Both the position numbers and the translations under genes were made by a program. DNA of 43,438 nucleotides from a virus (Duplodnaviria; Heunggongvirae; Uroviricota; Caudoviricetes): positions 1 to 43,438 of the IMG/VR virus record IMGVR_UViG_2703718829_000008; one strand, given 5' to 3'. Of this stretch, positions 36,143-38,896 are shown piece after piece. The notes below the pieces were generated by a model. That model had not been told where the DNA came from, searched no databases, and worked only from the letters and a program-made list of their open reading frames with translations. Numbering within the stretch: position 1 is the first letter of the stretch; every line of letters starts with the position of its first letter.

Positions 36143-36370
36143 TTATGCAGCCAGAAGGTTCTTTTTGCTTATTTCAAGCATTTCGCTTGCTTGATATTTG
36201 CCACCAGAAATCTCTTCGATTTTTGATGCGTATTTAGTTTTCCCAAAAAACTCAGTCTTAGGGAGGAAGCCGTTTTTGAGCCACTTATAGACAGCCCTTT
36301 CGCTAACTCCACAAGCCTTCGCAACTTCAGGGATGCCGACACCTTTAATCGGCTCATCAAGATTTTGCAT
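36143..36370 (-). CDS. cro: Cro-like repressor
   Basis: Start at internal Met MQNLDEP with SD AGGA; HTH 'GIPEVAKACGVSERAVYKWLK'; divergent from cI. Confidence 0.6.
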   Translation of the reverse strand: MQNLDEPIKGVGIPEVAKACGVSERAVYKWLKNGFLPKTEFFGKTKYASKIEEISGGKYQASEMLEISKKNLLAA

Positions 36371-36448
36371 AGGAATATCCTTTTTCGTACTTTCAGTACG
36401 CATTATGATTGAACTGAAAGTTTTTGCAAGTGCTTTAGTATCGTACTC
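36371..36448. promoter_or_regulatory. OR operator / PR-PRM divergent promoter region
   Basis: Inverted repeats CGTAC-TTTCA-GTACG (36386-36400) and ACTTTCAGT/ACTGAAAGT; cI ATG has no SD, suggesting leaderless mRNA. Confidence 0.5.
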
Positions 36449-37156
36449 ATGGTTCAGAATGAAAAAGTGCGCAAAGAATTCGCCCAGCGGCTAGCGCAAG
36501 CCTGTAAAGAAGCTGGTCTTGATGAACATGGTAGGGGGATGGCCATAGCCCGTGCCCTTTCTCTTTCGTCCAAAGGCGTTAGCAAATGGTTTAATGCTGA
36601 GTCTTTACCGCGTCAGGAAAAAATGAATGCGCTTGCGAAATTTCTAAACGTTGATGTTGTTTGGCTTCAGCACGGCACTTCGTTAAATGGAGCGAATGAT
36701 GAAGATACTCTTTCATTTGTTGGCAAATTAAAAAAAGGGTTAGTGCGCGTGGTTGGTGAGGCAATTCTTGGTGTTGATGGTGCCATCGAGATGACCGAAG
36801 AGCGCGATGGGTGGCTCAAAATTTATAGCGATGATCCAGATGCCTTTGGTCTTCGTGTGAAAGGAGACAGCATGTGGCCCAGAATAAAATCAGGAGAATA
36901 TGTACTCATTGAGCCTAACACCAAAGTATTCCCGGGTGATGAGGTGTTTGTCAGAACCGTTGAAGGACACAACATGATTAAGGTTCTTGGCTATGACAGA
37001 GATGGAGAATACCAGTTTACAAGCATCAACCAGGACCACAGACCAATAACGTTGCCTTATCATCAAGTAGCAAAGGTGGAGTATGTGGCTGGTATTCTGA
37101 AGCAGTCCCGCCATCTGGATGACATCGAGGCAAGGGAGTGGCTGAGAGATTCCTGA
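36449..37156 (+). CDS. cI: CI-type repressor (HTH + S24 LexA-like autopeptidase domain)
   Basis: 235 aa; N-terminal HTH, C-terminal 'RVKGDSMWPRIKSGEYVLIEP' S24 peptidase motif. Confidence 0.85.
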   Translation: MVQNEKVRKEFAQRLAQACKEAGLDEHGRGMAIARALSLSSKGVSKWFNAESLPRQEKMNALAKFLNVDVVWLQHGTSLNGANDEDTLSFVGKLKKGLVRVVGEAILGVDGAIEMTEERDGWLKIYSDDPDAFGLRVKGDSMWPRIKSGEYVLIEPNTKVFPGDEVFVRTVEGHNMIKVLGYDRDGEYQFTSINQDHRPITLPYHQVAKVEYVAGILKQSRHLDDIEAREWLRDS

Positions 37157-37262
37157 CATCAGAGTCATAGAGTGAGTTTTCTAGTTAGAAATAGTGGTCA
37201 ATGGGTACGCTTAGGTAAACCGTTTAAACATAATAAACAAGCCATATAAGATGAAATAAATC

Positions 37263-37640
37263 ATGAGCGATAAAGAGTTTAAAGTACTTGATTTTGATGA
37301 TTTTGCTCATTATTTGAGCACGTTGAACGGCGAACAAATTTGTCCAATGTGTATGGAAGAATCATGGACGCTTTTCGCCCCAAACAAGCTTCCTCCAGAA
37401 GACGAGGATAGGTATGTAATAAGTTCTATCCCAGGATCACTTATTTCAAGTAAAAAACCTGAAAAATCAAATCTCTTCTTCAGAAGTTACAACAACGATG
37501 TCCTCCTGATGCAATGCAGAAATTGTGGATACATGGCATTTTTTAATTATAAAAAAGTCCAAGAAAACCTTGAATCAGGGGATTATATAAAAAAAGAAGA
37601 TATAGATATGGTGGATGAAAATGACAAATCAGAAGACTGA
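37263..37640 (+). CDS. Hypothetical Zn-ribbon protein in the rexA slot
   Basis: 125 aa; CPMC...CRNC Cys4; acidic C-terminus; AT-rich; same strand as cI. Confidence 0.5.
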   Translation: MSDKEFKVLDFDDFAHYLSTLNGEQICPMCMEESWTLFAPNKLPPEDEDRYVISSIPGSLISSKKPEKSNLFFRSYNNDVLLMQCRNCGYMAFFNYKKVQENLESGDYIKKEDIDMVDENDKSED

Positions 37641-38100
37641 TTTCTTCCGTCCAATGGAGTATGATAATAACTATGAGCAATTTGGTGTTATAGAAGCACA
37701 CAGGAATGGTCGTTCTACTCCGTCATATCAGCCAGGCACCATTGGTAAGGATATCCCGGTTATTATTGCGCATAAGTTAAGCGATCAACCAGCAGGGGGT
37801 GAGCCACAGATGAGCGTAAAATCACTGTCACGTTGGGAGTTTTGGCTAGGGATTTTCACTGCCATTATTGGGATATTTTCCATTGTTGTAGGAGCAACGT
37901 GGACAATTTCTAATAATATCAATGATAAGATTAATGCATCAAGACAAGAGCTAACTGGGAACATCCAATCCAGTCGAGCAGAAATCACGGCAAGAATTGA
38001 CAGGCTCGAAGATAAGATGGAGTCTAATTTCAAAGAAACATCATCGAATCTGTTCAAAATACAGGCAATTCTAGAAGCAAAATCCGACAAAGAAAAATAA
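37615..38100 (+). CDS. Hypothetical single-pass membrane protein with C-terminal coiled coil in the rexB slot
   Basis: 161 aa (alternative ATG at 37621 with SD GGTGGA); TM helix WEFWLGIFTAIIGIFSIVVGATWTI; overlaps upstream gene. Confidence 0.5.
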   Translation: MKMTNQKTDFFRPMEYDNNYEQFGVIEAHRNGRSTPSYQPGTIGKDIPVIIAHKLSDQPAGGEPQMSVKSLSRWEFWLGIFTAIIGIFSIVVGATWTISNNINDKINASRQELTGNIQSSRAEITARIDRLEDKMESNFKETSSNLFKIQAILEAKSDKEK

Positions 38101-38106
38101 GAAAGT

Positions 38107-38131
38107 CCGGCCTCAGCGCCGGGTTTTCTTT
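38107..38131 (+). terminator. Rho-independent terminator of the cI immunity transcript
   Basis: CCGGC-CTCAGC-GCCGG followed by GTTTTCTTT, 6 nt after the stop of the membrane protein gene. Confidence 0.55.
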
Positions 38132-38331
38132 GCCTCACGATCCCCACCCCTAATAACACCTTAAGCAATTGTATTTATTGAAAAATTGATAAATACAACT
38201 TGCTAAACCACGCAATTCTGATCCCTTCCCCATCACCTCCATCCGCAACATTTACAAAAATAAATTTCCTTATATATCAAAATCATATTTCGTAGAGTTA
38301 ATAAATCACAAATAATTCGTACCAATAGTTC

Positions 38332-38360
38332 TTGATAAGATCGAACTATTGGTTCATTAT
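38332..38360 (+). promoter_or_regulatory. Candidate PL promoter with flanking operator-like inverted repeat
   Basis: -35 TTGATA, 17-bp spacer, -10 CATTAT; flanked by ACCAATAGTTC (38321-38331)/GAACTATTGGT (38343-38353); TTCGTA motifs shared with OR. Confidence 0.35.
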
Positions 38361-38560: not shown

Positions 38561-38896
38561 ATGACGGTAATCGTGTACGGAAAATCAACATTTGCAGGAA
38601 ATGCCAAAACTCGCCGTCATGAGCGGCGCAGAAAGCTGGCTATTGAGCGTGATGCTATCTGTAACATCATCGATTCGATCTTCGGCACAGACAGTGAGGA
38701 ACCTGTTCAGGAAGCCCCGAGAAAACGTTTAAGCCTTTCTGAAAAAGCAATATCACTCGGAAGCCTTCGCTGCAAGAAGGCAGAAGAAGTCGAGCGTAAA
38801 CAGAACCGTATTTACTACCGCAAGCCACGCAGCGAAATGGGTGTGACTTGTGTTGGTCGCCAGAAAATGAAATTAGGCAGCAAACCACTTATTTGA
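38561..38896 (+). CDS. N: N-type transcription antiterminator
   Basis: Start at ATG with SD GAGGA; Arg-rich motif KTRRHERRRK; C-terminus 'YYRKPRSEMGVTCVGRQKMKLGSKPLI' resembles lambda N. Confidence 0.75.
   Translation: MTVIVYGKSTFAGNAKTRRHERRRKLAIERDAICNIIDSIFGTDSEEPVQEAPRKRLSLSEKAISLGSLRCKKAEEVERKQNRIYYRKPRSEMGVTCVGRQKMKLGSKPLI

Follow-up and report, generated by a model that had tools for sequence, protein, structure and literature searches.

A zinc-ribbon and membrane-protein gene pair behind the repressor of a lambdoid phage: a candidate anti-superinfection module

Repressor-linked cassettes and an occupant of the cI–N slot

What do lambdoid phages keep between the repressor gene cI and the antiterminator gene N? 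This interval is a mosaic hotspot: rexAB lies there in lambda and bstA in the Salmonella prophage BTP1, and across many lambdoid prophages bstA keeps its position 3' of the repressor gene (Owen et al. 2021, PMC8585504). Here we analyse a stretch of 43,438 nucleotides from a tailed phage (Caudoviricetes; IMG/VR record IMGVR_UViG_2703718829_000008; the whole stretch is called the window below), in which this slot is occupied by two overlapping genes, g1 (37263–37640, + strand, 125 amino acids (aa)) and g2 (probably 37621–38100, + strand, 159 aa). The likeness to RexAB is one of arrangement. Both pairs lie between cI and PL/N on the cI strand, are presumably co-transcribed with cI from the promoter PRM, have the gene for a cytoplasmic protein first and that for a membrane protein second, and end at a terminator. 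The parts differ. RexA is a larger, DNA-binding protein and RexB has four transmembrane (TM) helices, whereas g1 is a predicted 125-aa acidic zinc ribbon and g2 has one TM helix; the g1 and g2 genes overlap and appear translationally coupled, and no sequence or fold similarity between the two systems was found.

Other described systems come close in different respects. Sbash gp30/31, CarolAnn gp43/44 and Butters gp30/31, from mycobacteriophage and Gordonia phage, are two-gene prophage defences that lie next to the repressor, are expressed in the lysogen and combine a cytoplasmic with a membrane protein, their membrane partners being multi-pass. They are described as RexAB-like in logic and not in sequence (PMC6426596, PMC6426606, PMC7542560). 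Their hosts and proteins are unrelated to ours, and the likeness is one of description only. P22 SieA is comparable in position, as relatives of our pair of the phage N7 type fill the mnt–sieA region, yet SieA is one protein that crosses the membrane several times and is expressed from a promoter of its own. BstA is different again. It is one large protein of the cytoplasm that comes with a DNA-based self-immunity element, and it has no sequence relation to g1 or g2.

We rate repressor-linked prophage exclusion cassettes as the known kind into which g1–g2 fits. Our favoured reading, which we hold tentatively and would stop just short of calling probable, is that g1–g2 is a lysogen-expressed anti-superinfection module with a RexAB-like logic built from unrelated parts, a candidate by its position and architecture. 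That g1 and g2 are real genes under purifying selection, that their cassette has definite boundaries and that the linkage to a repressor and a membrane partner is conserved follow from the comparisons below; any anti-phage activity, and which of the two proteins would sense and which would act, we infer. Apart from two unnamed phage protein families, the pair is matchless in the family, defence and structure libraries searched. If it serves defence or exclusion, it would be a new mechanism of only two proteins, very small at 284 residues together, whose membrane partners can be swapped, and tracking the genes 3' of repressors would be an efficient discovery route for such systems. If it serves prophage stability or lysis control instead, it would form a new link from repressor state to cell fate.

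An exchangeable cassette linked to repressor genes

The immunity region of the window is that of a mosaic lambdoid phage, with parts related to mEp506, HK106, HK542 and HK022; the closest overall relative of the window is mEp506. The slot is flanked on the left by a 235-aa cI-type repressor with a helix-turn-helix (HTH) and an S24 peptidase domain (36449–37156, + strand; Pfam Peptidase_S24 4.4e-16, HTH_3 1.2e-5; phrog_4 1.3e-48) and on the right by the N antiterminator (38561–38896, + strand; Pfam N_peptide PF25694 1.9e-26; phrog_271 2.3e-46). Where does the cassette begin and end? Stx2a-converting phages have cI and N about 94% identical to those of the window, with a different insert between them. 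Alignment with one such locus (L002) breaks on the left side at the stop codon of cI, so that the 106-nt cI–g1 spacer (37157–37262, + strand) forms the left boundary of the exchangeable unit. The right breakpoint lies inside the intrinsic terminator (38099–38131, + strand), whose 3' hairpin half and U-tract are common to both. An earlier sequence-only reading of this DNA had suspected acquired cargo, and the swap of the pair in sister phages between the cI stop and the same terminator bears this out. It had also remarked that both genes are AT-rich compared with cI and N, which holds: g1 has a GC content of 0.35 and g2 one of 0.40, compared with 0.46 in cI, 0.47 in N and 0.455 across the window. 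With conserved flanks, a terminator and a deviant base composition, g1–g2 is a moron-like inserted unit of the Hendrix type.

The open reading frames (ORFs) and the RNA fold confirm the order read earlier from the letters, two overlapping genes on the cI strand and then a terminator ahead of PL and N. The terminator hairpin (38099–38130) folds at -16.1 kcal/mol (z = -2.3 against shuffled sequences) and is followed by TTTTCTTT. Its GC core at 38107–38122 pairs 38107–38111 with 38118–38122 around the loop CTCAGC, and the U-tract runs from 38124 to 38131. An A-tract upstream of the stem makes the terminator symmetric, and the scan listed the hairpin on the - strand.

Does the pair belong to this one repressor or to repressors more generally? 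We tallied 47 loci with a g1-family gene, found from g1 homologues, g2 homologues and distant g1 relatives, by script and then against the gene tables. The g1-like gene lies directly 3' of a prophage repressor gene and on its strand in all except one of them (46/47), the exception being a decayed remnant in Edwardsiella. The upstream repressors comprise about 15 CI alleles, S24-type CI proteins of 212–254 aa with many unrelated N-terminal domains; in Rac-like Citrobacter prophages the upstream gene encodes a 131-aa HTH repressor, and in locus L027 a 167-aa HTH protein is separated from the g1-like gene by one extra small gene. The product of that extra gene (2324–2707 of L027; 127 aa) has a CxxC...CxxC motif in its N-terminal part and two hydrophobic segments after it, and so resembles a zinc ribbon joined to a membrane anchor. 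Mnt is the repressor in phage N7, which is P22-like, and in six P22-like IMG/VR contigs; in these loci the mnt stop overlaps the g1 start. The linkage is thus unusually strict and extends to both CI and Mnt, which are unrelated repressor systems. An identical pair follows different repressor alleles in L013/L014, L024/L025, L028/L029 and L021/L023; the two genes therefore travel together, and do so independently of the repressor.

In the P22-like loci the pair lies between mnt and gene 16, where the P22 map has orf59a and sieA. A third small gene follows the pair ahead of gene 16 in N7 (ORF14; L001 4922–5242) and in L038–L043. In N7 it encodes 106 aa with an N-terminal hydrophobic segment, to which neither Pfam nor PADLOC has a match; possibly this is another exclusion gene.

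The hosts include Escherichia, Citrobacter, Enterobacter, Yersinia, Edwardsiella, Pluralibacter, Serratia, Providencia and Morganella. Is the module directed at phages at all? As a lysogenic conversion it might instead alter envelope physiology, stress signalling or host virulence, and cargo that is linked to a repressor, is presumably expressed in the lysogen and includes a membrane protein would suit that too; for bstA, links to virulence phenotypes preceded the discovery of its role in defence (PMC8585504). In every locus seen, however, the module lies in a prophage immunity region and never in a chromosomal operon, and the other cargo of the slot is mostly phage-directed. We therefore hold conversion to be very doubtful.

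What else fills the slot? Sister phages that share cI, N and the terminator junction have other cargo in it. In Stx2_EH1965 (L002 2269–3615; the record is unannotated) it comprises a 113-aa protein matching PDC-S43, a PADLOC candidate-defence protein (7e-42), and a 285-aa NYN-like protein. In mEp506 (L045 11530–12660) it is a three-gene hicA/hicB/hicC module, and other sister phages have either a DUF2335 protein or a DUF3024 protein with a serine/threonine-kinase pseudogene, the latter apparently of the 933W stk type. Apart from our pair, the slot is used mostly for phage-directed cargo.

The zinc-ribbon protein and its membrane partner

An exhaustive profile search for g1 among 1.84 billion representative proteins returned 61 clusters at E <= 0.001, all of them stand-alone proteins of about 80–160 aa. 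The two knuckles of g1, CPMC (C27/C30) and CRNC (C85/C88), had been read earlier as a split Cys4 motif in a 125-aa protein with an acidic tail; this stands, as all four cysteines are invariant in the 60-sequence family alignment, with W35 and G89 nearly so. An AlphaFold2 model made from the family alignment is confident (pLDDT 82.8, pTM 0.72). It has helices at 11–20 and 96–105 and strands at 35–38, 79–85 and 91–95, both knuckles lie on the three-stranded sheet, and the acidic tail (107–125) is disordered. By this model g1 is a Cys4 split zinc ribbon with putative metal binding. Generic Cys4 ribbons (TFIIS/Rpb9, L44e/eL42, the MqsA N-terminal domain, Pfam Zn_ribbon_13) likewise have two CxxC knuckles and a three-stranded sheet, and L44e/eL42 has the wide gap between the knuckles as well. 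With a pI of 4.5 in g1, a family median of 5.0 and a value below 6 in 53/60 members, the family is acidic, which favours a protein rather than a nucleic acid as the binding partner of cytoplasmic g1. The nucleic-acid sensing implied by the sequence-only reading sits badly with this.

The only PHROG matched by g1 is phrog_4293 (6.6e-15), whose function is unnamed; nothing significant was found in Pfam, NCBIfam, PADLOC, PDB sequences or the fold libraries. A characterised family without a defence role, which would have spoken against the earlier proposal, is thus absent from the significant matches in Pfam, NCBIfam, PDB and the fold libraries. An identical g1 copy is present on one IMG/VR contig, and the cluster at 98% identity spans 87 contigs (the search of viral contigs for relatives used a 9-sequence alignment). 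At E <= 1 Pfam gives only weak zinc-ribbon and coiled-coil matches for the pair and none to RexA, RexB or SieB (PF14163), and PADLOC run over the 60 g1 relatives gives only weak, scattered, sub-threshold matches to unrelated models. Pfam, PADLOC and hhalign thus agree with the earlier statement that neither protein resembles RexA/RexB, SieB or known exclusion proteins. In a full-text literature search, which did not extend to the prophage screen of Brenes & Laub 2025, no zinc-ribbon and membrane-protein pair behind cI was described; the pair may possibly have been assayed in that screen already.

The start of g2 can be placed in two ways. The ORF 37615–38100 would give 161 aa, near the earlier estimate of about 160, and the start used by homologues and by independent gene callers is the ATG at 37621 (MTNQKTD, 159 aa), 5 nt past GGTGGA (37610–37615), the putative ribosome-binding site (RBS). 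The two genes thus overlap by 20 nt, out of frame, and an overlap of 14–20 nt with an RBS is kept in six lineages, from which g2 appears translationally coupled to g1. This gene order recalls toxin–antitoxin operons. As an addiction or lysogeny-state module, g2 would be a holin-like membrane toxin and g1 a labile protein antitoxin, and loss of PRM activity by curing or induction would free g2, so stabilising the prophage or making lysis faster. The antitoxin-first order, the 14–20 nt overlap and a small membrane protein behind a small acidic one whose tail is disordered all agree with this, as does the hicABC toxin–antitoxin module in the same slot of mEp506. Zinc-ribbon folds such as the MqsA N-terminal domain also bind toxins, although the fold match of g1 to that domain is not significant (E = 2.4). 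On the other side, neither g1 nor g2 matches a toxin or antitoxin family in Pfam or NCBIfam, no autoregulated promoter was detected before g1, and membrane toxins are usually under RNA rather than protein antitoxins. Taken together, we see addiction as a distinctly unlikely role.

g2 has a single hydrophobic segment, FWLGIFTAIIGIFSIVVGA (mean Kyte–Doolittle 2.27), with the TM helix at about residues 74–92. The one TM helix of the earlier description is therefore upheld; the soluble N-terminal domain proposed with it is not, since the N-terminal ~70 residues are the least conserved part and have no predicted structure in what is a poor model. Nor did the C-terminal coiled coil hold up, as the low-confidence model has only a continuous helix over residues 71–158, running from the TM segment through to the C-terminus. 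The ~65 aa past the TM helix are highly conserved, and phrog_24865, an unnamed PHROG, aligns to residues 78–160 (8.8e-17). The g2 family comprises 25 clusters, from Enterobacterales wherever the source names an organism, and its entries are all unnamed or hypothetical save one that is mislabelled; g2 has no relative among PDB sequences. Two Lys/Arg residues precede the TM helix and one follows it, which slightly favours an N-terminus-in topology. Two other identities were tried for g2. The NCBIfam 'mobilome CxxCx(11)CxxC protein' (TIGR04402) matches at E = 0.058, which is not significant. For an i-spanin (Rz-like) the only match is phrog_739 at E = 0.07, the gene lies in the immunity region and not in a lysis cassette, and the 70-residue N-terminal extension speaks against such an assignment as well.

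Could g2 simply block the entry of other genomes? In classical superinfection exclusion g2 would sit constitutively in the inner membrane and stop genome entry like P22 SieA, HK97 gp15 or T4 Imm, and g1 would serve its assembly or stability. g2 is most conserved in the TM helix and the ~65 residues behind it; with the N-terminus inside the cell, those residues would be periplasmic, and a conserved periplasmic part fits the binding of a conserved envelope or injection component; in the P22-like phages the pair also occupies the mnt–sieA slot, beside ejection-protein genes. The known proteins of this kind act alone, however, which would leave the zinc-ribbon partner without an obvious role, and as a SieA relative g2 had to be rejected (hhalign of SieA against the g2 profile, probability 0.6%). 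The distant relatives add a further difficulty, as the helix of their membrane partner precedes a C-terminal TM anchor and almost nothing would be left in the periplasm. We consider this form of exclusion unlikely.

These distant partners show that the membrane protein comes in two forms. Behind a g1-family gene there is in every case a second gene, overlapping it, whose product is a small membrane protein with one TM pass. In close relatives this product has the layout of g2, a variable N-terminal ~70 aa, a TM helix and a long helix; in distant relatives (L026, L027 and L028) it has a Gly-rich N-terminus, a helix with an RVAKLE-like motif and a TM segment at or near the C-terminus. Common ancestry of the two forms is unsupported, with hhalign probabilities of 0.7% and 3%. 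A conserved cytoplasmic protein with exchangeable membrane partners can be interpreted as a regulator or sensor with swappable effectors.

Might these be chance ORFs or decaying genes without a function? One could point to the lack of an annotated function and of a database match. Against five diverged homologues, however, dN/dS is well below 1 for both genes, at 0.06–0.42 for g1 and 0.21–0.39 for g2 overall; within g2 it is 0.14–0.21 for the TM and C-terminal part versus 0.31–0.78 for the N-terminal ~70 residues. Together with four cysteines invariant over 60 diverged homologues, an overlap and RBS that are kept, and synteny kept in Escherichia, Citrobacter, Yersinia, Edwardsiella, Providencia, Morganella, Serratia and Pluralibacter, this effectively refutes the idea.

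Expression, the proposed mechanism and the regulatory surroundings

How would the pair be expressed? The cI–g1 spacer is without terminator-like structure, its fold being no better than that of shuffled sequences (z = -0.07), and a site scan, which is crude, found no sigma-70-like promoter on its + strand. Read-through from PRM into g1–g2, and with it co-transcription with cI, is therefore the simplest expectation, and a promoter of its own would be unnecessary for the cassette because such read-through would serve. For the anti-superinfection module that we favour, the steps may then be as follows. A mobile two-gene accessory module would ride the lysogenic repressor transcript, PRM–cI here and Pmnt–mnt in the P22-like relatives, and so be made in the lysogen. 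Translational coupling would set a fixed ratio of g1 to g2, the inner-membrane protein. g1 would be the cytoplasmic regulator or sensor and g2, with which it presumably interacts, the effector at the membrane; g2 might, for example, oligomerise through its long helix to disturb the membrane.

Several observations weigh against this reading. Position in the cI–N slot is only suggestive of defence: hicABC in mEp506 shows that the slot takes toxin–antitoxin cargo too, and the Hex protein of phage 434, made from PRM mRNA, modulates repressor cleavage and does not act on other phages (PMC3564112). As an acidic protein g1 is unlikely to sense DNA or RNA in the way RexA is thought to. PADLOC 2.0, the defence catalogue compared (later catalogues lie outside the comparison), has no match to g1 or g2 at E <= 10. 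A model of g1 and g2 fused by a Gly-Ser linker, made from 12 paired sequences, gave no usable interface (pLDDT 45, pTM 0.26). Finally, the module is rare. The cassette DNA is in none of 5,426 complete E. coli genomes, 764 of which match the terminator junction only, beside other cargo, and because of this rarity any benefit of the pair is not general.

A bolder version of the favoured module can be formulated, which we put forward as speculation and think quite improbable. The g1 family would be a new family of repressor-coupled switches that gate interchangeable single-pass membrane effectors. With both proteins produced solely from the lysogenic repressor transcript (cI or Mnt), the pair would read the regulatory state of the prophage. 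The cell would be killed or permeabilised once an incoming phage or lost repression removes the inhibitor, g1. This would amount to an undescribed mechanism of abortive infection or addiction, common to lambdoid and P22-like phages of Enterobacterales.

The surroundings of the cassette have the elements of an immunity region. The cro ORF (36143–36403, - strand) is divergent from cI, and a PL-like promoter (TTGATA-17-CATTAT; 38332–38360, + strand), found by promoter scan, lies outside the cassette, separated from its terminator by about 200 nt of conserved non-coding DNA. The region of this promoter is conserved with the Stx2a phages. Operator-like inverted repeats flank it, and repeats of the form GTAC/GAAC-N-GTAC/GTTC, for example cGTACTTTCAGTACg and GAACTATTGGTTC, occur both between cro and cI (36380–36448) and at the PL-like promoter (38300–38345), which fits OR and OL sites of this immunity type. 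Rfam has no RNA family anywhere in the window. Just 3' of the cassette terminator, at 38169–38198, there is a perfect 10-bp inverted repeat, TTGTATTTAT-N10-ATAAATACAA, which could bind a protein or form a second hairpin; in the Stx2a phages a 12-nt deletion and substitutions abolish its right arm. An antisense ORF of 127 aa (37785–38168, - strand) overlaps g2 and the terminator, and is most likely spurious because the g2 frame is under strong purifying selection.

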